Source: Candidatus Bathyarchaeota archaeon | GTDB taxonomy: Archaea; Thermoproteota; Bathyarchaeia; Bathyarchaeales; Bathycorpusculaceae | DNA: 64,000 nt | Direction of reading: 5' to 3' | NCBI GenBank assembly: GCA_963707955.1 | Contig: OY970176.1 | Coordinates: 2,208,001 to 2,272,000, forward strand | In this document: positions 12,314 to 64,000 of the stretch, in pieces | Numbering within the stretch: position 1 is the first letter of the stretch | How the letters are laid out: each line of letters begins with the position of its first letter | Position numbers and translations under genes: made by a program | The notes under the pieces: generated by a model | What the model was told of the DNA's origin: nothing | What the model saw: the letters and a program-made list of their open reading frames with translations, nothing else | Database searches by the model: none

Positions 12314-12317
12314 AAGG

Positions 12318-17094: not shown

Positions 17095-17256
17095 CTATTT
17101 TGCCTTTGCTTTCTTCTGCTCGTACCGCTCGGCGCATCTGACGCAGCAGAAGGCGTACTCTTTTCCGTCTATCGTGGTGGTGTAAGCCGCGAGTCTGCAC
17201 GTTTCTGTCGGTATCTCAGCCTTGCAGTATTCGCATCTGACGAACTTGGGCTTCAT
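17095..17256 (-). CDS. TRASH/YHS-like small metal-binding protein (53 aa, missing from the ORF track)
   Basis: MKPKFVRCEYCKAEI...IDGKEYAFCCVRCAERY; ATGA overlap with the IscU stop. Confidence 0.78.
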   Translation of the reverse strand: MKPKFVRCEYCKAEIPTETCRLAAYTTTIDGKEYAFCCVRCAERYEQKKAKAK

Positions 17257-18824: not shown

Positions 18825-18857
18825 GCATCATTCACTTGACACGAGTTTAGTTGCTTC

Positions 18858-19094
18858 TTACTTAACCTTTCTAATCACTATTTGAACTTCGTTTCCTTTC
18901 TTGGTCACGCTTACAAGTTCTTGCTCCAAGTTTTTCACGAGGCTCCTAATGTCTGACTCTGCGGCCGGGTCATCTGCCAAGACCTCCAGCGTCTCGCCGA
19001 CCTTCAACTCATCCAGTTCCATTCTCGTCTTGAAAACAGGTTCAGGACAGTATAAACCTAAGCAATCCAACGTTCTGCCAGCCTTTTCTTTCAT
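18858..19094 (-). CDS. tusA: TusA/SirA-family sulfur carrier
   Basis: LDCLGLYCPEP...LEVLADDP...DI. Confidence 0.88.
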   Translation of the reverse strand: MKEKAGRTLDCLGLYCPEPVFKTRMELDELKVGETLEVLADDPAAESDIRSLVKNLEQELVSVTKKGNEVQIVIRKVK

Positions 19095-48258: not shown

Positions 48259-48448
48259 TTACCAGATCCGTTCCTACCAATAATGCAACTTTGCGATGGG
48301 TCTAAAATAGATAGCGCATCCTAAATCTAGATGAATGATCAACATCGTAACAGCCGGGTTTGCGACCATCATCGTATAGCGCCAATTTGATTTGGTAAAA
48401 AGTAATAAAGGGATATAAAGGCAAATCTGAAAATGACCCTGAGGCGGC

Positions 48449-49534
48449 ATGAAGTACTGGGACTGGGTAGGACGATCTCACGAAGGAATGTCCAGAGATT
48501 TCCCTAATGGTGAGGAGGGCTATAGGGCTGTTTGTTTCATTCGATCCTTTTTTGAGGGAATCGGAATCGAGGAACTACCCCGAAACCATCCGCTTCACAA
48601 CAGACTGCGTATAGGCATGGCTCCGAACTACTCATGGCTAGTACAATATGCACGAAAACTGCTCACTGCCAGTCAACTGTCAGGGTTCGAGGAGATTGCA
48701 AGAAGATTTGCAGATCCTCGGGAATACTTGGCTGCAAATGCTGAGACTGAGGTTGCTCTAAAGATGTACTTAGAAGGACTGGATGTTTCTTTTTCCAGAG
48801 TGGCCTCTCAGCCTACGTGTGACCTGACTGTGAATTTGGGTAGCGAAGTGATTAGAATTGAGGTAACTTCCCTGAATCCGCCTGATGAGGAAACGCGCGT
48901 TTGGACATTGGTCGACCAAGTTAACACCTTAGGTTTCATGAAAGAAGTCGCAACAGGTGGATTCGTAAGCAGGGTTCCATCGCCCAAAATACTTGAAGAC
49001 GTACTAAAACAAGTGAATCGGGCCATTGACGAGACTAAAGATTCGCGCAAGGTTAAGAAGTTCAATTACGAGGGAGTAGCGACAATTTATCTCGCTCCAC
49101 ATGATATGGTAGACCAGATGCCCGAGGATTCCAGACACACTCTTTGCTTTGTTCAACCTCCCCGCAAGCTTATAGAGGAGCAAATAAAAAGAAAGATAGA
49201 AGAGAAAAACAAACAACTAAAACACCACAATGAACCTGGGATACTTTTTCTTTATACGCAGATGATACGCAGACAATCAGTTTCAAAGTTATTTGAACAA
49301 CCAATGGATCATGTCTCAGTTGCATTGGCCTCTTATTCAAAGCTGTTGGGATTAGTTTTGACAGTTCCACATATGGGGATTGAAGTCGCAAACGCTGTGA
49401 AGACGGAAGACCTGAAAAAAGAGCGCAGAGGGGGTAAGCTCTTTCTGGAGACTGAAGCTGGTTCCTACCAGTACGAAAGTTCGTTACTCTGGAAGAATTT
49501 GCATGCTGACCGAGGTTTTCCAGAGAACTTGTAA
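48449..49534 (+). CDS. Hypothetical protein with restriction-endonuclease-like PD-(D/E)xK pattern
   Basis: E.EVA......G.DV.F.....PTCDL.V......IRIEVT. Confidence 0.5.
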   Translation: MKYWDWVGRSHEGMSRDFPNGEEGYRAVCFIRSFFEGIGIEELPRNHPLHNRLRIGMAPNYSWLVQYARKLLTASQLSGFEEIARRFADPREYLAANAETEVALKMYLEGLDVSFSRVASQPTCDLTVNLGSEVIRIEVTSLNPPDEETRVWTLVDQVNTLGFMKEVATGGFVSRVPSPKILEDVLKQVNRAIDETKDSRKVKKFNYEGVATIYLAPHDMVDQMPEDSRHTLCFVQPPRKLIEEQIKRKIEEKNKQLKHHNEPGILFLYTQMIRRQSVSKLFEQPMDHVSVALASYSKLLGLVLTVPHMGIEVANAVKTEDLKKERRGGKLFLETEAGSYQYESSLLWKNLHADRGFPENL

Positions 49535-49765
49535 CCGCGCTAGAGAACTATTCCTCAAACCTAAGGAAACTTTCGCCTCTTCAAGAGTCTTTTGCCGGGT
49601 TGAGGACGACTAGCTGAATTCCTATCGCCAATGGTTTGTAGCGCGCGCTGGTCGTACGCTATTTTTCTTCGTGCGCGCAGTTTTTGATTCAATACTTTTC
49701 GATAGGGAACCGACTAAATCAATGTTTGAGTTTGATATTCAAAAAAGGTCCAAGAACAGCGCGCA

Positions 49766-50173
49766 TTACCTTAGGAATCTGAAGATTTTCTTATACCAAG
49801 GCGTCATTCTATCTTGGATGATTTCACAGAGTTGATTTGCAAGAATCTGCGGGTTGTTGAAGACATCTTCATTGCGGCGTCGGAGCACCTTTATGCCCCG
49901 CCGCGCTAGGTTTGAGTCTCTTTGCCTGTCGTATCTTCTCCGGTCATCATGTATGCTACCGTCAATTTCTAAGCCTAATCGCAGTGTTGGACAGTAAAAG
50001 TCAAGGATGTACCCATATGCCACGAACTGTCGGTGGAAGATATGATTTGGAAAATTAGGCATCACTTGACCTTTTATGATTTCCCACATGCGCGCCTCTG
50101 CTGGTTTCGGATTGTGTCGCATTTCATAGGCTTTTTCGAACTTGAAAGGCGCACTTCTTCGACGGCGATACAT
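49766..50173 (-). CDS. DUF559/Vsr-like endonuclease domain protein
   Basis: MR.NP..AE..MW, F.RQ...GYILDFYC, EIDG..H, D..RD..L...G..VLR. Confidence 0.85.
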   Translation of the reverse strand: MYRRRRSAPFKFEKAYEMRHNPKPAEARMWEIIKGQVMPNFPNHIFHRQFVAYGYILDFYCPTLRLGLEIDGSIHDDRRRYDRQRDSNLARRGIKVLRRRNEDVFNNPQILANQLCEIIQDRMTPWYKKIFRFLR

Positions 50174-50288
50174 ACCAACCAGGCTACTATTTAATCTCTG
50201 CTAGCGCGATAAGGATTATGAAAACCCTGTAAAGATTGAAACTCAATTGAAAACCACGCAAGTTGCCTTTTTTGTTTGGGTTTGAGCT

Positions 50289-50305
50289 GGGATAAAACTT
50301 TACCC
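50289..50305 (+). repeat. Quasi-palindromic site, copy A
   Basis: GGGATAAAACTTTACCC, preceded by GT-rich arm TTTGGGTTTGAG. Confidence 0.7.
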
Positions 50306-50399
50306 TTTTTCTCTCTCCTGCTAACTCTCTCGCTCACTCTCTCTAAAAAAACAAACAAATAAAAAACACACACACGCAGACAACAAACAAAAACACACA

Positions 50400-51360
50400 G
50401 AAGTCAGAGACAAAAACGGGCAGACTGAACGTTATCCGCATTTTGAGAAGGAAATAGGCGAAGCTGTCCTGAAGAGCGGAAGTTACGTTTCCGTTGACGC
50501 CCTAATTGACCTTGCACTCTGGAACATAGACACCTACATTATGACTAGGAAAAACAGAGTTGTAGCAGTTTTGAAGAACCTTGAAGATGACTCTCACGTT
50601 AAAACTAGGCTCTGTCAATATGAGGCTCTCAGCAACGGTAAAGGAATTGCTATAGCTAAACAGTTTTTAATCTCCAAGATTGAAGGTCAAAACTTCGTTT
50701 TTAAGAAATATGGTCTGAAACGTCTCAATGTTGATGCTAGGCATCAAATCGGTAATATTCAATTTGAAAGTCTAGAATCAGCTAGGAAAAAGCTTGTCTT
50801 AATTGAGAGCCATAATGCTAAGCTGTATTTCAACCAGATTTTCAACTTGTTTCCTGAAAAGATTAGACCTGAAAAGAGGACAGGCTATGCGGCGTAAGAT
50901 GGCTTGAACAACGTCTTTAATTTTGCGTATTATGTTTTGAAGTGCAGAGTTCATAAGACATTGTTGAAAGCTAAGCTTGAACCATACCTAGGATTCCTTC
51001 ACTCTGTTCAAGTTGGAAAGCCTAGTCTAGTATGCGACTTTCAAGAACTTTACCGCTACTTGATAGATGACTACCTGATAGAACGGTGTCAGAAATTGCG
51101 TAAGAAGGATTTTGTGCTTGTTACAGATTTTATGATGCGTCTCAAAATGGGAAAGAGGATTCACCTATGTGAATTTGAAACTAATGATTTAGCTGAAGGT
51201 TTGAATTTGCTTTTTGAACGGCATAGTTGAGATTCCAAGAATCAGGCATGGCAGTAGGCAGACTCTTGACACGTTGATTAATGAAGAGGCTTACTTGTTT
51301 GCAAAGTTTCTGAGACATGAACGGGAAACATGGGCTCCAAGAATAGCGAGCCTAGCCTGA
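50400..51360 (+). pseudogene. cas1: Solo Cas1 endonuclease; 5'-truncated, in-frame TAA (50895-50897), frameshift near 51220
   Basis: EIGEAVLKSGS, R.CQY, IES, NN.FNFAY, LEPYLGFLHS, SLVCDFQELYR; no cas2 or array nearby. Confidence 0.85.
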
Positions 51361-51514
51361 TGGAAATAAGTAGTGATATCCCGATGTGGGACTTGGCGTG
51401 CGCTAATTTGTCAGAGTCCTCTGATCTGCGCTATTCTGTAAAGTCTGCTTGCTGGGAGTAAGAATACAAAGAGTTTTATCCTCATATCTTCAACTAAGTT
51501 GGCGGGATTGATAT

Positions 51515-52174
51515 TTGGAAAAACTTCAAACAGTAAGGCCTGAACGTACTGAAGAATTCAGGAAAAGATACCATGTGCTTCTTAACATCTCTGACGAGAA
51601 AATCAATGATATACTGAAACTGGTTGATTACGGACGACTTCTGCCTGATATCTGGAAAGATAAGCGAGAGGAGGAATTCAACCGGAAGATAGCTAAGATC
51701 TGTCAATTTGATGACCAAAAAGCAAGTTTGGTCATGTCATCGATAATTGGCATTTTGCGTAATGTGAAGAAAAAAGAGTTTGTTTTGAAAAGAGAATCAG
51801 ACCTGCTGAAATTGAAGTTTAACAAAACTGAGATTGAAAGATACGGAAAATTAGTGAACACATTGAGGAAAAAAGGGGGTCACGATGAAGTCAGAGAAGT
51901 CGATCAATGGCAATCTCTGACTGCGGAAGTCTTGCCATCTTTGGCTTCTATTGAATGCTCGTTTGACATACGGTGCGGAATCAAGAAAGACCAAGTATCG
52001 ACGTATATCCCTATTGTATTGTTAAAACTCAGAGCGACGAATGAAGGAGGGAAATCCTCAGAGTTTGTATTCCAAACTGACATTGGCACCCTAAGACGTA
52101 TAACTCGCGTTTTGACCGAAACATATAGAAACTCCAGTGTACTTAGGAAATATACACTCAAACGTGAGGACTGA
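51515..52174 (+). CDS. Helical protein with C-terminal COMM-domain-like region
   Basis: LPSLASIECSFDIR...YIPIVLLKLR......EFVFQTD...LRRI...L follows the COMM beta-beta-beta-alpha pattern; by eye only. Confidence 0.5.
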   Translation: MEKLQTVRPERTEEFRKRYHVLLNISDEKINDILKLVDYGRLLPDIWKDKREEEFNRKIAKICQFDDQKASLVMSSIIGILRNVKKKEFVLKRESDLLKLKFNKTEIERYGKLVNTLRKKGGHDEVREVDQWQSLTAEVLPSLASIECSFDIRCGIKKDQVSTYIPIVLLKLRATNEGGKSSEFVFQTDIGTLRRITRVLTETYRNSSVLRKYTLKRED

Positions 52175-52182
52175 AACTGACA

Positions 52183-52656
52183 ATGCGTCTCAGTCAACGT
52201 GTAGTACTTGAAGAACCGCAACCTGTCGCAGAGCATCAGAGATGTTTTCTAAGTGGAGATAGATACATCATGGATGCAGATCTCTTGGATAATTCCAAGC
52301 GTCGCGCGAGACTAAGACGCGTGCGTGAAGTATGGAAGCCAAATCATTGGTTCCCTGATGAAAGAATATACTTGGTGCATTCAGTCGCTCCAAACTTCTA
52401 TCGACGTGGCGATACGACATGGTCTATTGTTTTAGATGAAGAAAGCGAGACTGACTTAACTGAAACAATTCAAAAGAAGCTGAGAATCAGAAAGACAGAG
52501 GCAGCAGCAATAAAGGATAAACTTTACGAGGAAATTGACCAAATAGCTCAGGCTCGGAACGTTGAACGGTTTTCCTCAAACGAAAAAGACCAGCTAGTAT
52601 TAGCAATAATCAAGACCGCTGACAGTTTGTTGAAGAAGACACTTGATACAAAGTAG
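52183..52656 (+). CDS. Hypothetical protein (alternative start ATG 52270)
   Basis: 157-aa ORF between two co-oriented genes, gaps of 8 and 14 nt. Confidence 0.55.
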   Translation: MRLSQRVVLEEPQPVAEHQRCFLSGDRYIMDADLLDNSKRRARLRRVREVWKPNHWFPDERIYLVHSVAPNFYRRGDTTWSIVLDEESETDLTETIQKKLRIRKTEAAAIKDKLYEEIDQIAQARNVERFSSNEKDQLVLAIIKTADSLLKKTLDTK

Positions 52657-52670
52657 TCGGAGGCTGGCAC

Positions 52671-53753
52671 TTGTCATCCTCGGAAGACAAGCAGTCATCC
52701 TTTGCCTATCTTCTCTTGTCATTCCTCGAAGGAAAATTGTTAGAGAAGAATATTGAGATTCCCAAATCTTCTCGTGACATTCTTAATGTAGCAGTGGATG
52801 AGGCTGTCAACCAATATGTCACTATGCATGGCAAAGATATGACGATTGAACCTTTGTCACTTTTTGAGACGGTTTTCATGCTAGGTTTGGAATTCCGCCG
52901 TAAAAATCCTCCAATCATTCTTGTTCGCACCTATCAAGTTGGTTTTGAATCAAAAAAGAAGTCTCCTTATTCAATTGTAGTAGTGCAACCACGTGTTCCT
53001 TCTCAGGATCAGTTTAGAGAAAAGGTTACCAATAATGGAAAACTTTGTATCATTAAAGAAGAAGCGGCTGAAGACATAATGCAGCAACTTTCAGAGATTG
53101 CTGAGAAGCTTGAAGAAAGAGTTGATTTTGTCTGTTTTCCTGAACTATCATTCTTTGATAAGAAAGAAACCTACGATGTTTTGAGCAAAATTGGAAAGGA
53201 AAAAGATTGTTTCATAATAGCAGGATCTTTTCACGATGAAAAGACAGAATCTAATATCTCTGTGATTTTTTCACCCCAAGGAAACTGGTTCAATCAGAGC
53301 AAAATCTTCAGATCCAAAAACGAAGGTATCAATGAGAAACCAATAGAATACTTGAACGAGTTTGATTTCCTTGAAGGAAGATTTTGTGTGTTGATTTGTA
53401 TCGATTCAGAAAGAGAGGATATCAGACAGATACTCAAAGAGAGACTGAAAGACCGCAAGTGCCCTGTGCTAGTCTTCAACCCATCACACACCGAACACCC
53501 AAAAAGGGCGACGGAGCTGCTAGCAAACAATCTCATGGTGCTGATTTCTGCGGCAATAGTTTTCTGTAATACTAACCAGAAAGGGGGTTCAACGGTACTT
53601 GTTCCTTTTGTTGAACTCAAAGATAGAAAATTCCGACTCTTCGAACTACCTCCTTCCGCCAAGACTGAGATTGGAAACGCCCAAGTTGATGTTAACCTCC
53701 TTATGGAAAATAGATTGTCAAAACAAAATGGTGTGGTTTCCATGACGAGATAA
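52671..53753 (+). CDS. Carbon-nitrogen hydrolase (nitrilase superfamily) with ~100-aa N-terminal extension
   Basis: FPELS (Glu), QSKIF (Lys), LICID (Cys) triad; IIAGS; N...GGS; GGAGG RBS. Confidence 0.8.
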   Translation: MSSSEDKQSSFAYLLLSFLEGKLLEKNIEIPKSSRDILNVAVDEAVNQYVTMHGKDMTIEPLSLFETVFMLGLEFRRKNPPIILVRTYQVGFESKKKSPYSIVVVQPRVPSQDQFREKVTNNGKLCIIKEEAAEDIMQQLSEIAEKLEERVDFVCFPELSFFDKKETYDVLSKIGKEKDCFIIAGSFHDEKTESNISVIFSPQGNWFNQSKIFRSKNEGINEKPIEYLNEFDFLEGRFCVLICIDSEREDIRQILKERLKDRKCPVLVFNPSHTEHPKRATELLANNLMVLISAAIVFCNTNQKGGSTVLVPFVELKDRKFRLFELPPSAKTEIGNAQVDVNLLMENRLSKQNGVVSMTR

Positions 53754-53906
53754 GACTGCGAGCCGTCAAGGAAAGGATTTGCGCCCGCGCAAAATCACAG
53801 ACTGAACAGTGTTATGTGTTTTTCGTTTTATGCGTGTGTGTGTTTTTTATTTGTTTGTTTTTTTAGAGAGAGAGTGAGTGAGAGAGTTAGTAGGAGAGAG
53901 AGAAAA

Positions 53907-53923
53907 GGACAAAACTTTACCCC
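53907..53923 (+). repeat. Quasi-palindromic site, copy B
   Basis: GGACAAAACTTTACCCC, followed by CA-rich arm. Confidence 0.7.
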
Positions 53924-54199
53924 CCCACACACACAACAACTTTGGTTCGTGGCTTTTTGGGGTGCCTCGCTGGTCGCTCGGCACCTTTTTCTAAGCAGCA
54001 GGATGACCAGCTATCCTCTTTGAGGCAAAAAACAGACGCTGGTACGCTGATAAAAGAGGTGGGGCATGAGGCACAGCAAATAACCCTACCCACGCTCAAT
54101 AGGAGAATAATATACCCGTTAGAGGCTCTAAAGGGTATATTTCGAGACGTTTTCAGCTCAATTTGATGGCGAATAGAGAATACTCCAAAGCTACTGGAA

Positions 54200-54371
54200 A
54201 ATCATTAAGAAAACAGCGGTTTACGACAAGGCTCTTGGCAAATTTACAGACGAAGACTCACGCAAAGAAGGTTTCGAAGACATAGCCGAATGCAAGCAGT
54301 TCTGGAAGGAAAACATTGACGCGTGGAATCCCGACAGAATCGTCTGGATTCATGAACATGAATTAGTCTAA
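54200..54371 (+). pseudogene. ASCH-domain protein remnant
   Basis: LGKFTDEDSRKEGF.......FWKE....WNPDRIVWIHE is a typical ASCH C-terminus; 5' part scrambled. Confidence 0.6.
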
Positions 54372-54397
54372 GCACACGCCGATTACACTTCATACGC

Positions 54398-55249
54398 TTA
54401 TTCCGTGACCTCGGGTGTATCCGCGAGCACTTTCGAGAAGGAGTTTGCTATCGAATTGACTACCTCTTGGTTAGTGGAAACAATCCCTGCTTCCCAAGAA
54501 ACACCAGCCGATGAATCTGCAAAGAAATTCATTGAAGATATAATAGCTATTGCACGGTCAACTACGATTAATTTCGCGTGTACTTTGGCATCATAAAATA
54601 ATGAAATGCCTTCCTGTTTGAGTTTTGAGTGATAATCCTGCCTTTTCTTAAGATATTCAGGATGCTTGTCCTCTGGAGGGCGAGTAATAATTTGAACGTT
54701 GATTCCGTTTTTACTCGCTTCTATCAACGTATTGCTGAGGTCACAATCTTGAATGTAAGGATTTGCTGTGAGAACATCGAATTTGGCGTGAGAGATTAAT
54801 TCTTTTGAAAAATCATCTAGATGTCTTCGCTCGAGGAAGAAATGTTCATGCTCAATGGAAAAATCAAGATTCCTAATTTCTTTCCATTGCGCTATCCATT
54901 TGACGAGTTCGGTCCTCGGATTATACAACTCCGAATAAATCTGAAAACGTTCGTCAGATATGTAATACTTGCTCTCAGCGTTAGTGTTGCTCTCGATTTT
55001 ATGAATGTCTTCTGAGGAGATAAGTTCGAAAAGTGCCCTGTTCAATGATTTCTTGCCCAAACCAGTTACTTCTTGGATTTCTCTCCAAGTCAAGGGTCTG
55101 CCATTTTGGACAATCGCTCTGATGACTAAACCTTGCCATGACCGAGGTCTCCACTTTGGTCTGGCTGTCGCTTCGCTCTCCAAAGTTGGCTTCTCGGATT
55201 GTTTAATCATTCTGCGGAGCAAGAATAACTCCTGTAACTCTATCATCAT
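54398..55249 (-). CDS. wHTH fused to a phospholipase D-family (HKD) nuclease domain
   Basis: LTWREIQEVTGL....LNRAL.EL wHTH; NPYI; HAKLIVVD....IISSMNF. Confidence 0.8.
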   Translation of the reverse strand: MMIELQELFLLRRMIKQSEKPTLESEATARPKWRPRSWQGLVIRAIVQNGRPLTWREIQEVTGLGKKSLNRALFELISSEDIHKIESNTNAESKYYISDERFQIYSELYNPRTELVKWIAQWKEIRNLDFSIEHEHFFLERRHLDDFSKELISHAKFDVLTANPYIQDCDLSNTLIEASKNGINVQIITRPPEDKHPEYLKKRQDYHSKLKQEGISLFYDAKVHAKLIVVDRAIAIISSMNFFADSSAGVSWEAGIVSTNQEVVNSIANSFSKVLADTPEVTE

Positions 55250-55425
55250 ACGATTTCTTATAACAATAATGCAGTCATAATCTATAGCACAACTAACGGA
55301 TGCATCGCTTCAAAAATACCTTGGCACCTCTATCATTTTCTTGATCATAAAATGCCCTTCTTTTTGGTATGCCTTGAACATAAGTAAGTAGGCTCTCAAT
55401 GAGAATTAGCAATGTGGTGGTTGTT

Positions 55426-55442
55426 GGGGTAAAGTTTTACCC
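55426..55442 (-). repeat. Quasi-palindromic site, copy C (inverted)
   Basis: GGGGTAAAGTTTTACCC within hairpin-capable GGTTGTT...CCAAACC. Confidence 0.7.
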
Positions 55443-55689
55443 AAACCAAACCTGACGACGATGTGCTACGTGGAAACAGAATGGCTTCTGAAAGGCAGTA
55501 TACACGATTCAGAGCATAGTGGTTGATCTCTGCAAAAGAGGCTATTACGGGAAATCAGATCATAATAGGGTAGGGATATAGGTAGTATCGGAATCGAGTA
55601 TACGGCCCCCTTTGCGCAGAAGGATTGCGAGAGATGTGTTTGTTCTTTCTGTTTCATAATAGAACAGATTGTTTTGATTGTTATCGAGA

Positions 55690-56775
55690 TCATGAATCGG
55701 CAAGTTTCGTCTCAAGCAGTTCCAGTGTCTTGCTTATGCCGAATGAGCCCTTAATGGGGACTATTCGCTTTTCTTTGGAGAGTGCGCCCCTCAGCTTTGC
55801 TTGAGGAACCAATCTTCGGATTGCTTTTGTAGGCGCTGTAGAGATAACAAAAAGCTGGAGAGACCTATTTGCCACCAGAGACTCATTGATTATTGTATTA
55901 ATCTTCTCGTGCCTGAATGCAAAGCCGACGATGATGCAAATATCCGTCTGCGTGAGTTTATTTTTGAATCTGGCAAACATATCGCCGTACGGATATGGGT
56001 TTTCAGTGTTCGGCTTCCTGCCAAAAAGAACAAACTCGTTGTTTCGGTAAAGTATGGTGTTTGGCGGAACTGGAAACTGTACGGTTATCACCTCAATCTT
56101 TTCTGTCTGTTTGTTCCATACCCAGTTCAGGGAACCATGAAGCTTCGTCAGTGTATATTTTTCGCTGGATGTGGGGGTCACCTGTGGCTCCAAAGTATGT
56201 TCTAGGACCGCATACCTCAGAGCATGCCCAGACTGATCGCAATAATCCTCTATCACGTGATCATAGTTGGTCGTGAATATCTCGAATTCAGGTTTGTTCG
56301 CCATATACGTTTTCATCAAGGAAAAGAAGCGACCGTAATAGTCTTTGATATCATCGAAAAACCCTTGTTTTCGCTGATAATTTGAGAAAGTAGCGGCAGT
56401 TATTTTTTCTTCAAGAGCTCTTGCTAGTCTAACTATCTTATGCCATTCAATTGTACCTTGAAGAGGGTAAGGATGACTATCTTTTCCGAAATCTACAGAC
56501 TCTTTGTACCGTTCAAAGAAATTGTGCATGGAAGAGGCTGTCGAGAGCCGATCTATCTCAAACAGCGAATCGAGAATCTCAACAATATGTTCAATGTCTC
56601 TCACACCGTGCAATTGGCGGAGGGACGACAAGAAACTTCTCTCTTCATCCTTCAAAGTTTTTGAGAAATTTTCCATAAAAGCCTTCGTAGCAGGACAACC
56701 AAACTTTGCAGAAACCCCTGCTCCCAAGAATATTATGATGCTTTTCGAGTGTCCATTATCGACCCTAAGTGACAT
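55690..56775 (-). CDS. SIR2-like (SIR2_2) protein, putative NAD+-cleaving defence effector
   Basis: FLGAGVS..FG.P, FTTNYD, KLHGSLNW, IVGFAF. Confidence 0.85.
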   Translation of the reverse strand: MSLRVDNGHSKSIIIFLGAGVSAKFGCPATKAFMENFSKTLKDEERSFLSSLRQLHGVRDIEHIVEILDSLFEIDRLSTASSMHNFFERYKESVDFGKDSHPYPLQGTIEWHKIVRLARALEEKITAATFSNYQRKQGFFDDIKDYYGRFFSLMKTYMANKPEFEIFTTNYDHVIEDYCDQSGHALRYAVLEHTLEPQVTPTSSEKYTLTKLHGSLNWVWNKQTEKIEVITVQFPVPPNTILYRNNEFVLFGRKPNTENPYPYGDMFARFKNKLTQTDICIIVGFAFRHEKINTIINESLVANRSLQLFVISTAPTKAIRRLVPQAKLRGALSKEKRIVPIKGSFGISKTLELLETKLADS

Positions 56776-56848
56776 GTGACTAGATTGCTACGGAGACAAG
56801 AAAACGCTTTCGGTTTGTGTTTCTTGGCAGAAATAGTATCTATTTGCA

Positions 56849-58489
56849 TCAGCTCTCCTGAAAGAAGAAAAGATTATCATTCCGAATAGAATCTCTCAAT
56901 TTAACCAGCAGATTAAAGTGCTCGTGAAGCTTCGTTTCTTCTGCTTCTTTTTCTACTGTTTCTATATCTTTTTTCATTGGGAATCCTTCCATTCCTATAT
57001 CCACAGGATATTCTTTCCTTCGGAATTTTGCTATTTTTTGAACACAAATATTGAAGAATCTGATTTCCGACAATAAACGCATGGCAAGATCGAGCACTTT
57101 GTTGTCATAGACTGACTTTATCCAACCCTCAGTTTCGTCTGATTTCGACAATAGTCTCAATTCAATGAAACCAGACGGAGATGACGCAAACTGAAAATGT
57201 CTGATTTCATTTATCTTGGCACTTGTAATGAATAATTCTTTGGTAACGTCGTTGAAAAACAGTCGAAAATCGTGGCAAGGGAAAAACAGTTTATCCCTGC
57301 TCAGTGATGCGACTAAACCCAGTTTGATTCTTTTAGGTATTGACTTTCCGTAATACTCACTTTCAAACACTGAGTTGTTCTGATACAATTTCCTGAAATG
57401 GGAAGGCAGAAACAAAGATTTTTCTAATTCCACACATTTCTTGAAAAGCTTTCTCAAGCTTTTTTCAGCTTTCTGCAGATCTATTTCATCGAAATTATCA
57501 AGAGGAAATGTTATACTGAAATCAAAGTTCTTTGGCAATTTGATTCTTGTCAAGCTAGGGGCCTTTCCGCAAATCTGTTTTAGGGTAGAAAACTCGGATA
57601 TGTTCTTCGTTTTGTATTCGCCTTGCAGCATGAAATCGTCTAACCTGAATTTCTCGATTTTTGGTATGAACGAAAAAACGCCCGAGCTACCTGAGGGTCG
57701 ACCCCAATCTTGCAGTTCATCGGCCAAAATGAGGACAGACAATATTTTCTCTTTTGATGCTTTGATTTTCCTTGTGCCGCGGGAGCTATGAAAAGCAATG
57801 GCTCTGATTACGTCCTCATATTTCTTAATTAGATTCGCATCTTGTTTTAGATAAGATGTGAACTCTAATGCACTCAATATGCCATGGTCAAATTCCTTAG
57901 TTTTGTATTCCTGCAGGATCTCTGGCGGCAAAGATGAGAATTTCTCGATATCAAATCGCAATTTCTTTTCCGCATTCAATAATGCTTCCGAAGCTATATT
58001 GTAACAGTCTTTTATCGCATTTATAGAGAATCGGATGCTCTGGTCTATGTCAGCCAAAGGATATGCGACATCATGGAAAAGGGAAGCCAGGAGCAACTTA
58101 TCCAGATCTTGCGGAGACAAATTGAAAGGGGATTTTTGGCCAATAGCTCTGCCCAATAATGCAACGCGTATCGTATGATTTAGATGATCACGGTAAAATT
58201 TCCTTGCTAACCCTCGAGTTGATATTGTTATTTGCTCCAAACTGGTTAACGCATTACCTAATCGTTTCGACCTCATTCTTCCTTTCGAACTGCAGTCTGC
58301 ACCTAAGATCTTGAGAATCAAATTACTCATTAAGGAGGCTGCTTTCGTTTTCTGCATCTCATAATCAGTTATTTCATTCCAATCTTCTATTTCAGAGCAG
58401 ATGTCTTGGGGCCATTTCCCTAGCTCTATTATCTTTTTGTCGAAAAGCAAACTGACTACGAACGGGTTTTGCTTCGATATGTCTTCCAT
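56849..58489 (-). CDS. Large HD-superfamily phosphohydrolase
   Basis: YRDH..H..RV, LFHDVAYP, DHGILSA, IAFH, LILADELQDWGR. Confidence 0.8.
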   Translation of the reverse strand: MEDISKQNPFVVSLLFDKKIIELGKWPQDICSEIEDWNEITDYEMQKTKAASLMSNLILKILGADCSSKGRMRSKRLGNALTSLEQITISTRGLARKFYRDHLNHTIRVALLGRAIGQKSPFNLSPQDLDKLLLASLFHDVAYPLADIDQSIRFSINAIKDCYNIASEALLNAEKKLRFDIEKFSSLPPEILQEYKTKEFDHGILSALEFTSYLKQDANLIKKYEDVIRAIAFHSSRGTRKIKASKEKILSVLILADELQDWGRPSGSSGVFSFIPKIEKFRLDDFMLQGEYKTKNISEFSTLKQICGKAPSLTRIKLPKNFDFSITFPLDNFDEIDLQKAEKSLRKLFKKCVELEKSLFLPSHFRKLYQNNSVFESEYYGKSIPKRIKLGLVASLSRDKLFFPCHDFRLFFNDVTKELFITSAKINEIRHFQFASSPSGFIELRLLSKSDETEGWIKSVYDNKVLDLAMRLLSEIRFFNICVQKIAKFRRKEYPVDIGMEGFPMKKDIETVEKEAEETKLHEHFNLLVKLRDSIRNDNLFFFQES

Positions 58490-58515
58490 TGAGTTGTACT
58501 ATAGATTCACTAGTG

Positions 58516-58525
58516 TTATATATAA
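58516..58525. promoter_or_regulatory. Palindromic TATA box, candidate bidirectional promoter
   Basis: TTATATATAA centred in the 65-bp gap between divergent ATGs at 58489 (-) and 58555 (+). Confidence 0.55.
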
Positions 58526-58554
58526 TGATTCGAAAGCCTATATTCAGAGGCAGG

Positions 58555-58923
58555 ATGAAATCTATGGGACATCGAAGGGAAGTTTTCAGACCCAGATCTA
58601 CAAAGACGATAAAGAATAGAATTCAACAATCACTCAAAGAGGGGAGGTTTGCAGAAGCTGCCAACATTGCTGCTTTCAGTTATTCATCCAGGCCTATTGC
58701 AGATGATTTCGCCATTTCAATGTTGGCCACAGCCGAAGCTATCACCCTGGGCCGACAAATAAACTGGAAAAAGATTACTGAAGATCTAGTTTCTGCAGGT
58801 ATATCTATCGCTGAACGGAAACTCAATTCGAGAGTCAACAGAAAACGCCTCTCAATAGTCTTTGAATCCATAGCCCGTTCGGTTGAACGCGCTAGAAAAG
58901 AGGAGAGTGCGCGAGATGAGTGA
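58555..58923 (+). CDS. Hypothetical small helical protein (alternative start ATG 58564, MGHRR...)
   Basis: First gene of three overlapping ORFs ending in the QueC-like gene. Confidence 0.6.
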   Translation: MKSMGHRREVFRPRSTKTIKNRIQQSLKEGRFAEAANIAAFSYSSRPIADDFAISMLATAEAITLGRQINWKKITEDLVSAGISIAERKLNSRVNRKRLSIVFESIARSVERARKEESARDE

Positions 58924-59266
58924 TCTTGACATTCTCCTTCTGAAAAGCGTAGCTAAAGAAATCATCGAGCATGTTTGGAAAACGGAATTCTACAACGATG
59001 CTGAGAATTATATTTTATACAAAGATTCTAGACGGAAAAAAAACCCTAGGTCGGAGGATGAGATAAGACAGATCGATTCCGAATTGAGTAGATTAAAGAA
59101 CGATCTAATTGACGAAATAGTTGAAGAGTTCAATGCGAACGGGATAAACTCCATGGAGGATATTTCAAAATCCTATGGAAAAGTCCGGGAAATATGTTAC
59201 AAGAAATTTGAAGAGCATAGGAGGCGACTTTGGGATGTCGTTAAACCTGGATTCCCTTCTAAGTGA
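58916..59266 (+). CDS. Hypothetical charged helical protein
   Basis: ATGAGTGA overlap with the upstream stop; AGGAG RBS. Confidence 0.62.
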   Translation: MSDLDILLLKSVAKEIIEHVWKTEFYNDAENYILYKDSRRKKNPRSEDEIRQIDSELSRLKNDLIDEIVEEFNANGINSMEDISKSYGKVREICYKKFEEHRRRLWDVVKPGFPSK

Positions 59267-60533
59267 ACATCTGGCAGAAACATCCCCCTTAAGACAATTT
59301 TTCTGGCGAAAAGAAAGGAAAGCAGACGGAATTAGTTATCCTATACCTCTCAAAGAACAATATGTAGATTTCTTGAGACTTGTTTTGGGGCTTCATATAA
59401 TAGAAATCAGACATCTTGAATACGTCAAAGAACTGAGAATGGAAACAAGCTATCCGGATGATTTTCTTTCTATAGTCAATGATTGCGAGTCACTTTTCTA
59501 TTTGTTGGCAAATATGAAGGTAAACCTCAAGATTATTCCAAGCAGTTCCAGACATAGCTGGAGAAAAATCGATGAAGGTACTTTATATAAAGATATCGTT
59601 CCATTTTCCGGTGGATTAGACAGTCTATGTGGCGCTCTTAGTTCATCAAAACATTCAAGAATCATTCTGTCTCACTGCAAGACGAATCTGGTCATCTTTG
59701 GCAAGGTTTTGAAACTTTCAGACATGAATTCTTTCAAAAGGTCCGTTTTATATTGTATGGATGCTACGTCCAAAACACCGATAGCTGGAGTATCCGATAC
59801 GAGGGGATTACTTTTCCTTTCATTCGCTTATGCAATTGCTGCTTCTTTGGACCTAAGATACGTGACATTTTGCGAAAATGGCTCGCAGATGCTTGACGTG
59901 ATGCTAGGTTCATTAGTCTATCCGAATAAACCCGCCACGAAGAATACAAACCCAGTCTATATTGACAAAATTGAGAGCATTTTCAGCAACTTCTATGATA
60001 AAACCTTCAAAATCGAATGCCCTTTCAAGGACATGACAAAGGCTGAAATGCTTCTTCCATTAAAAAATGAAATAAGATTCGAAGATACTTACTCATGTTT
60101 CAGCCCAAGGGGCAGGGCTGCAATGTGCGGGGAATGCTATAACTGCTTCGTAAGAAGACTATCCTTATTGGCAATAAACGTCGCAGAGAAAAATAATGTG
60201 TATGAAGTAAATCCTTTCACGGTTACGCATGAAATACATCACGAGGGAAGCGCTCCGTCAACGAACATCCTATTTCATTTCTTAAGGTTCTATAGCCAAA
60301 TACTAATGAGGAATTCCTCTTCGATGAATGAGATAGAAGTAAGCTCAAGAGGCTATTTTAGAGACCCCTTGGATTTGGCTACTCGATTCGCCGAAGATGT
60401 ATTTCTAGGTGTCAATGGACTATTAGGCGCGATTGGTGAAAACCAGTTGAACGCACTAGGAAAAAAAGCAAGAGAGTTGCTTGATCAGCTTGACAAGAAA
60501 ACCCTGAGAGAAAGAAAAGAGGAATTGACCTGA
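59235..60533 (+). CDS. QueC-family PP-loop ATPase (QatC/Cap9-like, extended)
   Basis: FSGGLDS PP-loop, CENG, PF..MTKAEM, TYSC and CGECYNCFVRR zinc site; ~430 aa with N- and C-terminal extensions. Confidence 0.82.
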   Translation: MSLNLDSLLSEHLAETSPLRQFFWRKERKADGISYPIPLKEQYVDFLRLVLGLHIIEIRHLEYVKELRMETSYPDDFLSIVNDCESLFYLLANMKVNLKIIPSSSRHSWRKIDEGTLYKDIVPFSGGLDSLCGALSSSKHSRIILSHCKTNLVIFGKVLKLSDMNSFKRSVLYCMDATSKTPIAGVSDTRGLLFLSFAYAIAASLDLRYVTFCENGSQMLDVMLGSLVYPNKPATKNTNPVYIDKIESIFSNFYDKTFKIECPFKDMTKAEMLLPLKNEIRFEDTYSCFSPRGRAAMCGECYNCFVRRLSLLAINVAEKNNVYEVNPFTVTHEIHHEGSAPSTNILFHFLRFYSQILMRNSSSMNEIEVSSRGYFRDPLDLATRFAEDVFLGVNGLLGAIGENQLNALGKKARELLDQLDKKTLRERKEELT

Positions 60534-60808
60534 TTGGCACCTAGGGGATAATACGCCAAACGAACGTGGCGCACTATCACTTAGAATGTCCTTTCAAGAG
60601 TTCTCGCGCGCGCTATTTGCAATCTTTCGGTTCTAGGAGGTATTTGGGAATTGGTATGGCAGATGCTCTAGATAAAATACTTCAATATGTGGACGTAACT
60701 GTGAAAGAAATCTGTCTTCGTTCATTTCTGGATCTGGATTCACCAGAGCTTTGATTAGCTGTTCTTTATGAAAGTCCTTTAGATTTGGATCTCTCTTGTA
60801 GCGTGCGC

Positions 60809-61741
60809 TCAGATAATCACTGGTTTATTTTTTTGCTTATTTGTTCTTTGTTCCAGTTTTATTAGGACCAGACTTAGTAGTGCCATCGTCGTTGTTCCAA
60901 TGACTATCGGAATCCAATTGGCGGATACAGCCTCAAGATTCGCCCATATGCCCATTCGATAAAGAACAAGCCAAATACCAAGGCAGACAAGACCTGCAAC
61001 GAAAAGGGGTTTTTTCCAGATGTTGCGGTGCTTGATCATCGTTTGGGGAATTATTTTTAGAGGCTCTTTTCTATCTCTCCGGTCTAGTTCGCCCGACCAA
61101 TAAACTAGTCCGAAAAATGCGAACCCTGCAACAAACGGATAGTAAAATGACCATGGTTTGGCGAAGACCTCTAGATTCGATCCATTTGGCACTAGCAACC
61201 AGATTATTGAAAGGAATATTGCTCCTAAAAGGAAACCGCGATCTAATAGGTGACTGTTAAGTGCTGGTCCGTATATTCTCCGCCACGGTGTAGGCTGGTC
61301 ACCGGGCAAGCGAAGATCTGGATCTGCTTGTTCTATGATGCCTCTAGGGTCTTCTTGAAAGAAGTAGACTTTTCCATTTTCAATAGGAAGCTGTGGATTT
61401 CCATCAGCATCAATTGTGCCGCGTTTAACCCATCTTGTTAGGGGATAGAACCATTCACAGCCTCTATCTTTTGCGGTGGTAAACGAGTCCTGCAAGGCGT
61501 GCATAAAAATACCGAGTGAAAAGAAAGGGCTCAAAAGAAACCCTGCCGCCATCACAAACACATTATGAAACCTTGCCCTGTGAGGTTGTTCATCTCGATA
61601 TTTCTTTGCTCGAACAAACCAATACTCTCTGTCCAAATCGGGGACAAAGGCTCCGAGACAAACGAGTAGCGCGGCGTCAGCACGACCAAAGAAAATTAGC
61701 CCTACAGCAAAAGCAAATACAACATGCGTTGTTAACTCCAA
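60809..61741 (-). CDS. Membrane-bound metal-dependent hydrolase (YdjM-like)
   Basis: TH, PDLD, HRARFH, H.LQD motifs plus TM helices. Confidence 0.75.
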   Translation of the reverse strand: MELTTHVVFAFAVGLIFFGRADAALLVCLGAFVPDLDREYWFVRAKKYRDEQPHRARFHNVFVMAAGFLLSPFFSLGIFMHALQDSFTTAKDRGCEWFYPLTRWVKRGTIDADGNPQLPIENGKVYFFQEDPRGIIEQADPDLRLPGDQPTPWRRIYGPALNSHLLDRGFLLGAIFLSIIWLLVPNGSNLEVFAKPWSFYYPFVAGFAFFGLVYWSGELDRRDRKEPLKIIPQTMIKHRNIWKKPLFVAGLVCLGIWLVLYRMGIWANLEAVSANWIPIVIGTTTMALLSLVLIKLEQRTNKQKNKPVII

Positions 61742-61910
61742 CTTGCATCAAGCTAATTATTACATCATCCCCAATTTAACTGCTTTCTCAGCTGTCTCAG
61801 GATGTGTGAATATCGTTTCAACGATGTCTACCATCGCCGTAGAATCAGCTATGTTCTTTATTCTCTCTGATCCATTGCCCTTGAATGAAGCTAGTTGTTA
61901 TCCCAGAAGA

Positions 61911-62474
61911 TTATCCGTGGCGCTCGGCTTTTAATTTTTTGGAGAATAAACCTTCCAGGCAGTAGACTGTAAGCTTCTCTTTTTCTGGGCATTTTGCTCC
62001 AAGGTCGCACTTTGGGCAAAGCTGGGAAACATCTTTCACGTTGAGGGTGCCCATTCGTTCGTGCAGGGCATAGAGCAGCTTAAGGTATTTTCCCTCAGCT
62101 ATTCTCGGAACATCATACCGCCTATCTAGCCCATACCACTCATAGAGCCGCCTATCACCCTTGGAAGAGTTACAGCTCTTACAAACCCAGACCGCATTGT
62201 CAGGCAAATCTGGCCCTCCTCTTGACTTCGGCAAAATGTGATCAAGTGTAAGATCTTTCTTGCCACCACAATAAATGCACTCTCCAGTCTTCTCACGCTC
62301 CTTCACGTACTCCCGAATAGAAGTCGACCACAGGATCTCCCCAGAAGCAAGCTTCTTGAACCTGTCCATCACAAAACCGTACTGCCTCTTCCCAGCACCG
62401 GCAGACTCTGAAATGATCTTGGCATACTGCCAGAAAATCAAGTCTCCGACAGTTTTCACGGCACTAGGAGGCAA
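61911..62474 (-). CDS. HNH endonuclease
   Basis: CIYCG, LTLDHILPKSRGG, NAV.VCKSCNSSKG. Confidence 0.88.
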   Translation of the reverse strand: MPPSAVKTVGDLIFWQYAKIISESAGAGKRQYGFVMDRFKKLASGEILWSTSIREYVKEREKTGECIYCGGKKDLTLDHILPKSRGGPDLPDNAVWVCKSCNSSKGDRRLYEWYGLDRRYDVPRIAEGKYLKLLYALHERMGTLNVKDVSQLCPKCDLGAKCPEKEKLTVYCLEGLFSKKLKAERHG

Positions 62475-62561
62475 TAATACACCCAGAGTAACTAGGGTCG
62501 ACAGGCCTTTTATGCTTTAAACTAGCGCGCGCTAACTTTTCCGACACATCCAATGCTGGTT

Positions 62562-62578
62562 GGATAAAACTTTACACC
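62562..62578 (+). repeat. Quasi-palindromic site, copy D
   Basis: GGATAAAACTTTACACC, followed by CTCAAACCCAAAC and a low-complexity arm to ~62693. Confidence 0.65.
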
Positions 62579-62720
62579 TCAAACCCAAACCTAAACCCAA
62601 ACGTTTACTGACTAAACTTCTAACTTACCTATACTCTTACTCTCTTCACACATAATACAAGACATAATATACACATAAAACACGCGCGCGCTACGTACAT
62701 ACGGACCGCATAAATCGGCG

Positions 62721-63668
62721 TTACAATCGATCTTCAGGAGGAGTCGGATTTGGGGATGCCCCGTTTAAATGAGGTAGGAGCGCCCTGTAAATTGTGGAAT
62801 TGATAGGGGTCTCCACCCCCTTCTCTCGACCCAATCGAACAATGGTGCCGATCAAAGCGTCAAGTTCCAGCCGATGACCCGCCATGAGGTCAACCTGCAT
62901 AGACGGCCTAGCCCACGTCGCATACCCCTCTAACATCTTCATAGTGTCATCAACGAATCTTTCAGGTATCGTGACTCCAGACGCCTTTGCCACAGCAACG
63001 TTCTCCTCCATCGTATCGCGTACCAATTGCCAAGAATCAGAGCAATCTCAGACAGGCCCTGCTGGGAGCCTAATCAATGAAAAGACCCCGTTGACCGCTG
63101 AGTTGGAGAGCATCTTCTCCCACAATGCCTGTCGGATATTTGGGTGAAGCTCGGCGGCGATATTAGCTTCTTTGAGAACCTTGGAGATCTCTTCTGTGCG
63201 CCTCGTCACGCCTCCTGCGAGTTCCCCGAATATTAGCCTCGTCGAACCTCCGTGTATGATAACGCCTGGTTTCTCGACTCTGGCGTTCACCCAGGAGACT
63301 CCTCCGAGGACATGCTCTAATCCAACTATATTCCCTATGTGGTCAGCGGCCTCTACGCCGTTCTGAACTGGGATTATGACGGTTCCTTCACTGATAAGTG
63401 GTGACATCTGCTGCGCGGCGGAGTCGAGGTCGTAGGTCTTCACGCAGAACATGATTAGGTCAACGGGGTCAACTTCGGCGGGCCTATCAGTTGCTTTCAC
63501 GGATAATTTGATGTCTCCGAGTGAGTTGGATTTGACGAATAGGCCATTAGCCCTCAGGGCATCCAGGGTTTGCCCCCTAGCGATTAGGGTTACATCGTTT
63601 CCAGCATTTGCGAGAAGCGCTCCGAAGAAGTCGCCTTCACCTCCAATCCCGACGACAGCTATTCTCAT
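62721..63668 (-). pseudogene. panE: 2-dehydropantoate 2-reductase with in-frame TGA (63048-63050)
   Basis: VKTYD, QNG, LWEK, PSMQ.D...G..LELD; both ORFs share one frame; nucleotide-binding loop altered (GIGGEGD). Confidence 0.82.
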
Positions 63669-63774
63669 AATTTACAAAATAGTTGAAATAGCATTTATAT
63701 TATTCTTTGTATGTACGATCAGTAATTATTAGCGAGTAATTGAGCTGAAGCCCGAAAATGCTCAGGTATGTGTC

Positions 63775-63792
63775 GGGATTAAATTTTACCCC
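63775..63792 (+). repeat. Quasi-palindromic site, copy E
   Basis: GGGATTAAATTTTACCCC, followed by CCAAACCCAACCC. Confidence 0.6.
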
Positions 63793-64000
63793 CCAAACCC
63801 AACCCAAAAAACACACAAAACCCATGTGAGAAATGCAGAACTGTTATAACAAGAAAAAATAGGGATAGATAGTATGCTTCGAGTAGCGGGTTAGCTTGTT
63901 GTGATCGACCACTCGCATGGAATTTTTCCTGTTTTCGCCGTGGCTTTCCATCCCAACAGTTTTGCTGTGTCCACGACTGATGCAGCACAGAATTCGCACA

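Follow-up and report, generated by a model that had tools for sequence, protein, structure and literature searches.

A multi-copy palindromic motif between gene modules of a Bathyarchaeota genome, probably a target of casposon-like elements with a solo Cas1

The described systems closest to the locus treated here are casposons, elements that carry a Cas1-family integrase. For the family 1 casposase of Ca. Nitrosopumilus koreensis, the passages available from one study describe a protein of 347 aa without a helix-turn-helix (HTH), a 13-bp duplication (ATTGATAAAGAGT) beside a TTT leader, and a specific target that contains GATAAA, with ATAA as a ruler, at which almost any DNA of up to ~4 kb is integrated (PMC8464041). 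In the accessible parts of two further papers, thaumarchaeal casposons are reported to insert in tandem, mostly at ef-2 (PMC6563490), the targets of described casposons are single-copy sites such as the ends of tRNA or ef-2 genes (PMC6563490, PMC9939771), and a polymerase gene is stated in review to be present in all identified casposons (PMC9939771). Here we analyse a stretch of 64,000 nt (the window) that corresponds to positions 2208001-2272000 of the single-contig 2.35-Mb genome of a Candidatus Bathyarchaeota archaeon, the host genome G000. In this window, five copies (sites A to E) of the 16-bp near-palindrome GGATAAAACTTTACCC lie between gene modules. This motif is probably a sequence-specific target, duplicated on insertion, of elements with inverted repeats, the autonomous members of which would be casposon-like elements with a solo Cas1 and without a polymerase, and most copies of which would carry cargo only.

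The elements considered here share several traits with family 1 casposons such as NitAR1-C1 of Ca. Nitrosopumilus koreensis, namely a Cas1-family integrase of a size near 347 aa without a C-terminal HTH, terminal inverted repeats, a 13-bp target duplication (here in the relative G018) and tandem insertion at what would be a regenerated target. GATAAA/ATAA stands in the family 1 target and also in the window motif, which is often preceded by GTTT(GG). Unlike family 1 casposons, the elements examined yielded no family B polymerase, their target is an intergenic palindrome present in many copies and not the 3′ end of an ef-2 or tRNA gene, cargo-only derivatives are abundant and arrays of 4-8 units occur, and the host names of the Cas1 homologues are Bathyarchaeia, not Thaumarchaeota. 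Among the features by which a casposon is recognised, a Cas1 with catalytic residues (a pseudogene in the window, intact in relatives), inverted repeats (the unit between sites A and B, contig C24 of G039, and G018) and a target duplication of ~13-15 bp (13 bp with empty sites in G018, a 16-bp direct repeat at A and B in the window) are present, and a family B polymerase inside the element is the one that was not found. Since integrase type, inverted repeats, duplication length and tandem habit are shared, while the polymerase is missing, the target is a multi-copy palindrome and many derivatives carry only cargo, these elements are better called a casposon variant than casposons in the strict sense. 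This likeness is one of element features, not of phylogeny against casposase families 1-4.

Other systems are comparable in part. As in CRISPR arrays, a Cas1-family enzyme is implicated, a partly palindromic repeat is apparently duplicated at each insertion, and one orientation mostly prevails. However, the inserts are 0.3-17 kb long, bear genes and have their own inverted repeats, against spacers of 30-40 bp, or 25-50 bp by a wider definition, and the repeat measures 13-17 bp against 25-40 bp; TRF detected no CRISPR array in G000, where Cas2 and effector genes were not searched for. Like integrons, including archaeal ones, the arrays hold small, often single-gene cassettes between imperfect palindromes, with accessory or defence genes, but no IntI was found, the core is conserved in sequence and not in structure, genes run in both directions, and the units possess terminal inverted repeats. 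Many units keep only their termini without an integrase, and cas1 3′ remnants lie 0.6-2 kb from a terminus, as in derivatives of the type of miniature inverted-repeat transposable elements or in deletion derivatives; unlike such non-autonomous derivatives, they carry functional-looking cargo genes and all share one specific target. In the literature search, no paper with the motif strings and none that pairs casposons with Bathyarchaeia was found, although supplementary tables may list polymerase-less or bathyarchaeal elements; casposons together with Bathyarchaeota gave only an off-topic match, as judged by its title and the start of its abstract.

Motif copies, arrays and inverted-repeat units

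The window was scanned on both strands with GGRTAAAACTTTACCC, allowing up to 3 mismatches, and 100 shuffles served as the null. Eight strand matches were obtained at five places, whereas 0.77 were expected (sd 0.92, largest 4) and none of the 100 shuffles reached 8. Thus, the five related sites that an earlier note on this DNA had pointed out are real, with three start coordinates (50289, 55426 and 63775) one base low. The note had seen no motif in the first 46 kb; indeed, the pattern scan gave no match in window 1-50289, and a profile scan gave none in genome 2208001-2258286. All five sites lie between long open reading frames (ORFs), again as had been described, and site E overlaps merely the stop-codon end of a 69-aa ORF. 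The motif is built from two 7-bp arms around a 2-bp centre (7-2-7).

In the aligned copies a conserved 16-bp core is surrounded by low-complexity, strand-asymmetric flanks. Left flanks consist of (GTTTGG)n, (GGTT)n, (GT)n or GA-rich sequence, right flanks of the complement, (CCAAAC)n, (AACC)n, (CA)n or CT-rich sequence, and further out, CGT repeats (left side) or ACG repeats (right side) often form another layer. The flanks named earlier to the left of A (GTTTGGGTTTGAG) and to the right of D (CTCAAACCCAAAC) are as described, and the GT-rich left and CA-rich right pattern holds generally across the genome. The two flanks of one site may be mismatched: site A is GT-rich on its left and CT-rich on its right, and site B GA-rich and CA-rich, respectively. 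The GT-rich type of site A, found at most sites of the genome, is the reverse complement of Cas1-element termini in relatives, and the CA-rich flank of D shares its repeat unit with the G018 Cas1 element described below, where it occurs in the perfect inverted repeat.

The interval from A to B is a 3.6-kb unit in which inverted repeats are bracketed by 16-bp direct repeats, and it therefore has the anatomy of a transposon. Its arms (50303-50392 and 53819-53908, ~90 nt) are 77-88% complementary, with a local score of 133 against 20.3 +/- 3.7 in shuffles (z 30.7). Inside the left repeat starts a solo cas1 pseudogene that is 46-69% identical to the intact Cas1 (338-347 aa) of a genus member; it has an in-frame TAA after 50897, a frameshift before its last 43 codons (51232-51360) and a shortened N-terminus.

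A motif profile (score >=12) found 35 sites in G000. They are clustered, with a median nearest-neighbour distance of 3.6 kb against 24 kb for random placement, a value that none of 2000 simulations matched, and the surrounding G+C is slightly low (0.463 vs 0.479). An even spread through core regions, which would have spoken against a role at module borders, was not observed in the scans of this genome and its relatives: the 35 copies cluster in variable islands and are absent from core regions. Orientation agrees in 16 of 20 adjacent pairs less than 20 kb apart in G000; with the addition of 19 loci of G001, G007 and G009, chosen for holding several sites, it agrees in 50 of 70 (binomial p 4e-4); here and below, other genomes are labelled G001-G083, their loci L and their contigs C with a number. 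Direct neighbours are spaced by 301-17,439 bp, and many neighbouring sites are just 300-650 bp apart and enclose one small gene. Arrays reach 4-8 units.

Within these arrays, sites with a CT-rich right flank pair with downstream sites with a GA-rich left flank, and the motif copies of such a pair are direct. The termini of these CT...GA units (Table 1) follow the consensus TTTTTCTCTCTC...GAGAGAGAAAAA, and CCCAAACCC... is a terminus type of the elements distinct from TTTTTCTCTCTC.... The cargo of the units is unrelated: NosD/beta-helix proteins, an old-yellow-enzyme (OYE) reductase, DUF4760 with a winged helix-turn-helix (wHTH) regulator, and a GNAT acetyltransferase. Both motif copies around the unit at L038 1539-3722 read AGATAAAACCTTACCC and have two rare variants in common, one per half-site. 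When paralogous loci are compared, homology ends at the motif. For example, the left flank of site C is that of site 394040, and both flanks of B resemble those of site 2033104. The non-coding terminus of ~165-185 bp that abuts C on its right contains a TGCCCTG...CAGGGCA stem and recurs beside motif copies at genome 394036-394220 (86%), with further copies at 388922-389075 and 654295-654396; it always abuts the motif, and it is common to G000 and five genomes of the genus (G001, G007, G008, G009 and G010). In G053, two inverted copies of it stand outside a Cas1-bearing interval. To the right of site E, 714 bp are 98% identical to genome 2033861-2034574, and this homology, which begins at the motif, ends past the window in a cas1 3′-end remnant (genome 2272427-2272561).

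Solo Cas1 genes and their elements in relatives

The host genome contains 13 remnant loci of one solo Cas1 type, most of which are the last ~40 codons. Nine of them lie <=2.1 kb from a site; in 5000 random trials, 1.4 on average and never more than 6 came within 5 kb of one. With their 3′ ends, the remnants face the nearest site, 0.6-2 kb away, which is the pattern expected of internal-deletion derivatives. Intact solo Cas1 proteins are encoded in G001, G039, G041, G018, G043, G053 and G081. They are 338-360 aa long with 49-67% mutual identity, and all seven that were aligned keep E164, H229, D241 and E244. These residues are equated with E141/H208/D218/D221 of E. coli by motif pattern and the available part of a review (PMC9939771), not by alignment. 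wHTH proteins are encoded beside some of the Cas1 genes. With E <= 1e-20 as the limit, the G018 Cas1 has 1338 close homologues. The top 120 of these measure 337-369 aa, show 55-100% identity and, where named, are plain CRISPR-associated Cas1 of Bathyarchaeia.

Each of the 10 other genus genomes has the motif; near-complete ones give 20-40 strand matches, and a reversed control pattern gives 0. Beyond the genus, an even sample of 61 genomes of the family showed it to be abundant in G039, G041, G053, G068, G073 and G081. In G031, G038, G043, G046 and G069 it is replaced by a sister palindrome, GGATTAAATTTTAATCC, with the same GT-left and CA-right flanks, and G041 holds both this palindrome and GGATAAAACTTTACCC. 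In the 61-genome sample, a Cas1 in the solo score range occurs in 9 of the 12 motif-rich genomes and in 6 of the 49 motif-poor ones (Fisher p 4.5e-5, a value inflated by relatedness since kin are not independent; clade membership was verified by BLAST for seven genomes).

Intact Cas1 elements could be delimited in several relatives. In G039, the whole contig C24 (17,506 bp) has inverted repeats of 163 nt at its two ends, which share 99.4% identity and start with AACCAACCAGTTACTACGAC, and its cargo comprises an intact Cas1, AIPR, an MvaI/BcnI restriction-modification pair and an HNH protein. In contig C12 of the same genome a C24-type terminus runs straight into GGGGTAAAGTTTTATCC, which is the window motif on the other strand, and in C8 a related terminus abuts another motif copy. 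Thus, since the C24 terminus abuts the motif in C12, the CA-rich flanks of the motif are the termini of Cas1 elements. In G043, three units, two of which have an intact Cas1, lie side by side with single copies of the sister motif between them. Their inverted repeats are 98-100% identical, and one pair of ends, GG-ATTAAATTTTAAT-GCACACA...TGTGTGC-ATTAAATTTTAAT-CC, displays a 13-bp direct duplication.

The clearest case is that of G018. Here, an element of 3.85 kb has a perfect inverted repeat of 29 nt, CCCAAACCCAAACCCAAAAAAATCGGAAA (CCCAAACCCAAACCC...), carries an intact Cas1 and four small ORFs, and is flanked by identical 13-bp direct repeats, TTAAAATTTTTAT. In the congeneric species G082 and G083 the same flanks are joined across a single copy of the 13-mer, i.e. 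these are empty sites. As judged by this comparison of genomes, the locus proves transposition of an element of the same Cas1 clade with a 13-bp target duplication, with the empty sites preserved; it is one comparative case. Next to it, a conservation of 79-94% that reaches into other families of the order was seen for ~230 nt to the right of the insertion site (L062 13628-13860). This region gave no tRNA or Rfam match, and may represent a conserved small gene or an RNA of unknown type.

No polymerase turned up in Pfam scans of the ORFs of the G043, G039 and G018 elements. In G000, PF03175 gave only an 18.5-bit sub-threshold match far from the sites, with PF00136 not searched genome-wide, and it gave no match in G001, G039, G041, G043 and G051, though this model matched in no control genome either. 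A search for a Y1 transposase likewise found no match. In three genomes a conserved protein of 142-172 aa is encoded ~2.5 kb or less from the intact solo Cas1 (Table 1), and one of these neighbours has a weak sub-threshold match to an archaeo-eukaryotic-primase-like family (E 0.0011).

Insertion and other explanations of the motif

Insertion of inverted-repeat elements would account for the sites as follows. Autonomous members would lack a DNA polymerase gene and have a solo Cas1 of 338-360 aa as their integrase, and cargo-only derivatives would carry defence or accessory genes. By analogy with characterised casposases, Cas1 would attach the inverted repeats by their 3′ ends at the borders of the target, at positions staggered between the two strands, and gap repair would then duplicate 13-16 bp. 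Because such a duplication would regenerate the target on both sides, further elements could land beside the first, and this tandem landing would let arrays of alternating motif and cassette grow, mostly in one orientation; the GT-rich left and the CA- or CT-rich right flanks would be the termini of abutting elements. A-B would then represent such an element, its cas1 dead; element termini would lie on the right of sites C, D and E; and B-C, C-D and D-E would be gaps between insertions or decayed elements. As every cas1 of G000 is broken, the arrays in this genome are probably fossils and no longer mobile unless served in trans.

The earlier note had proposed that the sites are recombination or integration sites that divide the region into modules, acted on by a tyrosine recombinase in trans or by the solo Cas1. 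Integration junctions they appear to be, yet A-B is the only one of the four intervals that is a demonstrable inverted-repeat unit. Of the two enzymes, Cas1 is the likely one to act at the window's motif, which is consistent with the remnants near sites, with the co-occurrence across genomes and with intact Cas1 elements that abut the motif or are flanked by a 13-bp duplication.

Several observations do not sit easily with insertion by Cas1. No intact cas1 exists in G000, and three of the 12 motif-rich genomes are without a solo-type Cas1 (none in G031 and G038, only a CRISPR-range match in G073). Inverted-repeat ends were found for one of the four window intervals; none were detected in B-C (z 0.6), C-D (z -0.2) or D-E (z 2.8), none at the two intact-Cas1 loci of G001, and none around the intact Cas1 cassette of G081, though both motif copies there share a rare G7 variant. 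The proof by empty sites was obtained for another 13-mer, TTAAAATTTTTAT, and in a different genus, and no empty site for the window's motif was found, nor an orthologous flank of the G007 CT...GA unit in the 10 genus genomes. Twenty of the 70 adjacent pairs are inverted. Copies that flank one cassette are no more alike than random pairs of the same genome (mean Hamming distance 1.50 vs 1.62, with 31% of nulls as low), and whether 13 or 16 bp are duplicated is not fixable because G/C runs are common to target and termini. Finally, two G043 elements with near-perfect repeats have flanking copies that differ at the central base, so that the motif can be read as a part of the repeat.

This last observation leads to the most serious of the rivals, by which the motif is the outermost part of the elements' own inverted repeats, and full sites arise where two ends abut, with little or no target duplication and by any enzyme. 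A 7-2-7 near-palindrome is what such abutting ends could give; the motif copies fall within the 124-nt, 98% inverted repeat of a Cas1-bearing G043 element and, like inverted copies, are unequal at the central base; and the lack of extra likeness between neighbouring copies fits as well. On the other hand, direct orientation prevails both in G000 and overall, all six CT...GA units have direct copies, and the two copies around L038 1539-3722 have their rare variants in common in each half-site. At G018 the direct duplication is clean (13/13), lies outside the inverted repeat and is matched by empty sites in two species. A comparison of flanks, with a palindromy of 5.6 for one site and an end likeness of 7.06 for one cassette against a null of 6.19 (sd 2.5), leans weakly to the cassette as the unit. 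We consider this rival unlikely.

It is quite improbable, too, that the sites are cores of a conservative site-specific recombinase, either a XerA-type tyrosine recombinase or an integron integrase in trans, through which circular cassettes pass in and out. Cassette arrays separated by mostly direct, imperfectly palindromic repeats do invite this comparison, one of the nine tyrosine-recombinase genes of G000 lies 0.9 kb from site 654370, and a two-segment block is circularly permuted between G009 and G000. Integrons have moreover been reported in Archaea, according to the accessible part of a preprint (bioRxiv 10.1101/2022.02.06.479319). Against this, the integron integrase was not found (TIGR02249, best 29.5 bits vs a cut-off of 265) and none stands beside an array, eight of the nine tyrosine-recombinase genes are not near any site, and no recombinase is consistently adjacent. 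The arms are 2 bp apart, unlike Xer or integrase cores with their central region of 6-8 bp, and the units carry terminal inverted repeats of 90-163 nt, which conservative recombination does not need. Integron attC sites conserve structure rather than sequence, whereas here the sequence is conserved and the hairpin is not: single-stranded DNA folding of the five sites (z -0.30, +1.19, -1.32, -1.84 and +1.58) stays within the range of shuffles, so a hairpin or attC-like structure was rejected. In pdif modules, a 28-bp site with two 11-bp arms and a 6-bp centre serves a Xer recombinase, and inverted sites bound the module; the sites studied here are mostly direct. Hence, the tyrosine-recombinase, pdif and integron mechanisms named in the earlier note are not supported.

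Least probable is a purely regulatory role, for instance as the operator of a dimeric transcription factor or as a promoter or terminator of island genes that works in both directions, by which the motif would mark borders only since it is intergenic. The motif is indeed palindromic, intergenic and conserved across genera, wHTH proteins are encoded beside some Cas1 genes, and 12 of the 33 intergenic sites of G000 lie between divergent genes. Nevertheless, with 12 more between tandem and 9 between convergent genes there is no consistent position relative to gene starts or ends, and the general promoters of the genome use TTTATA/TTAAATA boxes, not the motif; a generic promoter was rejected on these two grounds. 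From an operator one would not expect the strand bias of clusters, the combination of inverted with direct repeats or the homology that stops at the motif. The motif may still have a secondary role in regulation. A CRISPR array was rejected as well, given the spacing of the sites and the lack of a TRF array.

Insertion at a duplicated target thus remains the preferred explanation. A DNA search of the genus with window 48400-56800 matched only repeats and gave no orthologous island, and strain breakpoints are therefore not mappable. DNA of G000 was found in freshwater-sediment metagenome runs, among which no RNA run was listed. Four DNA runs, kept as contigs, displayed no insertion polymorphism; contigs drop rare variants, so this does not inform on mobility. 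The joints 51342>62531, 53977>63775 and 62563>50290 in run contigs all trace back to paralogous loci, located at genome 2284-2285 kb and 2033-2034 kb. Contigs of the likely source run differ from the window at full depth by one additional G after 49527, close to where ORF 48449-49534 ends, and by substitutions at 46967, 56714 and 63631, which may be consensus errors or strain differences in the assembly.

Gene content and biological meaning

Table 1. Sites, element parts and genes (window coordinates unless another genome, locus or genome position is named)
Feature	Position	Strand	Description
GT-rich flank	50274-50286	+	GTTTGGGTTTGAG; left of site A; resembles the right terminus of a neighbouring element
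Site A	50290-50305	+	GGATAAAACTTTACCC, 0 mismatches; left direct-repeat copy around the A-B element
Left terminal inverted repeat, A-B	50306-50397	+	CT-rich, starts TTTTTCTCTCTCC
Solo cas1 pseudogene	50379-51360	+	Pfam Cas_Cas1; two fragments; abuts/starts inside the left inverted repeat
Three A-B cargo ORFs (219/157/360 aa)	51515-53753	+	No solid family; last has a weak DRT-nitrilase-like match
Right terminal inverted repeat, A-B	53815-53906	+	GA-rich, ends GAGAGAGAGAAAA
Site B	53907-53922	+	GGACAAAACTTTACCC, 1 mismatch; right direct-repeat copy, 15/16 identical to A
Interval B-C	53923-55426		PLD/DrmC-like nuclease gene at 54398-55249 (-)
Site C	55427-55442	- (best strand)	GGGTAAAACTTTACCC, 0 mismatches; sole inverted copy among the five
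Repeated terminus, ~165-185 bp	55443-55607	+	Abuts C; CA-rich, then ACG repeats, then a conserved stretch
C-D cargo	55690-62474		SIR2, HD, two small ORFs, QatC/QueC-like, YdjM-like, HNH; defence-type
Site D	62562-62577	+	GGATAAAACTTTACAC, 1 mismatch
CA-rich terminus-like flank	62578-62603	+	CTCAAACCCAAACCTAAACCCAAAC; right of D; CTCAAACCCAAAC at 62578-62590
panE/ApbA, two ORFs (101 + 206 aa)	62721-63668	-	Alone in interval D-E
Site E	63776-63791	+	GGATTAAATTTTACCC, 2 mismatches; leans to the sister motif of other genera
Decayed Cas1-element terminal fragment (start)	63792-64000	+	Homology begins at motif E
CT...GA unit	G000 1263779-1280958		Flanked by direct motif copies
CT...GA unit	G000 2285513-2289265		Right motif copy degenerate
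CT...GA unit	G000 2293587-2299640	-
CT...GA units	G007 (L038) 1539-3722 and 16982-18922		Flanked by direct motif copies
Conserved Cas1 neighbours (142-172 aa)	L063 14833-15327, L033 7321-7839, L061 7581-8009

The genes around the sites are mostly of the defence type (Table 1), and a pPIWI-associated nuclease and DUF559 also occur. Among the gene names given earlier for the modules, cas1 (in two fragments), PLD, SIR2, HD, QueC-like, HNH and the split panE were borne out, a 'nitrilase' comes down to a weak PADLOC match (E 3.8e-7), and a 'COMM-like' protein is below threshold (E 0.035). The panE/ApbA gene between D and E is probably a pseudogene. tRNA and Rfam scans of the window gave no match, and a search for AmoA, with a model that also matched in no control genome, gave none. 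GC-alternating palindromes like TAGCGCGCGCTA stand at window 62522-62537 and 62682-62697 and within ~100 nt of many sites of the genome; they may be a second signal or a part of some element termini.

Some cargo outside the window is worth recording. G000 has four TBP genes, including 872209-872724 and 1416562-1417077. One copy is located 1.4 kb from site 874117, within an array, on a segment 87% identical to that around the 1.417-Mb copy, and paralogues of a basal transcription factor may thus travel as cargo. A gene of the aminoglycoside 3-N-acetyltransferase family (L053 1647-2426, i.e. G000 2284647-2285426; Pfam E 4.4e-51) lies just left of site 2285513, beside a cas1 3′ remnant. Between L035 (G009:C18) 11549-13855 and L055 (G000 2030196-2031849), two adjacent segments with 96% and 82% DNA identity are swapped in order, and in one of them lies the gene of a 178-aa protein, a member of a multi-copy family, with 97% identity across species. 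This swap may reflect a recent exchange or a circular permutation of cassettes.

If the motif is the target of these elements, a large and uncharacterised Cas1 clade would reside in small polymerase-less elements, and several genera would share a dedicated, multi-copy palindromic target. The repeat-cassette arrays, full of defence genes, would have been built by repeated insertion, by a sequence-specific integrase that seems to tolerate cargo of kilobases. It has been postulated that casposons gave rise to CRISPR through loss of the polymerase and duplication of a repeat by Cas1. The architecture of the arrays is that of this postulated step, and a natural system of this kind would make the scenario testable. 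More tentatively, and with some doubt on our part, the arrays could be a gene-capture platform driven by Cas1, in which a polymerase-less Cas1 inserts inverted-repeat gene units beside a short palindromic repeat that is duplicated each time, so that defence and accessory genes would pile up as cassettes between repeats. This would be a living intermediate between casposons and CRISPR, integron-like but with Cas1 instead of a tyrosine integrase, and widespread in Bathyarchaeia. Insertion of this type would explain how defence islands are assembled in a major archaeal lineage of sediments.

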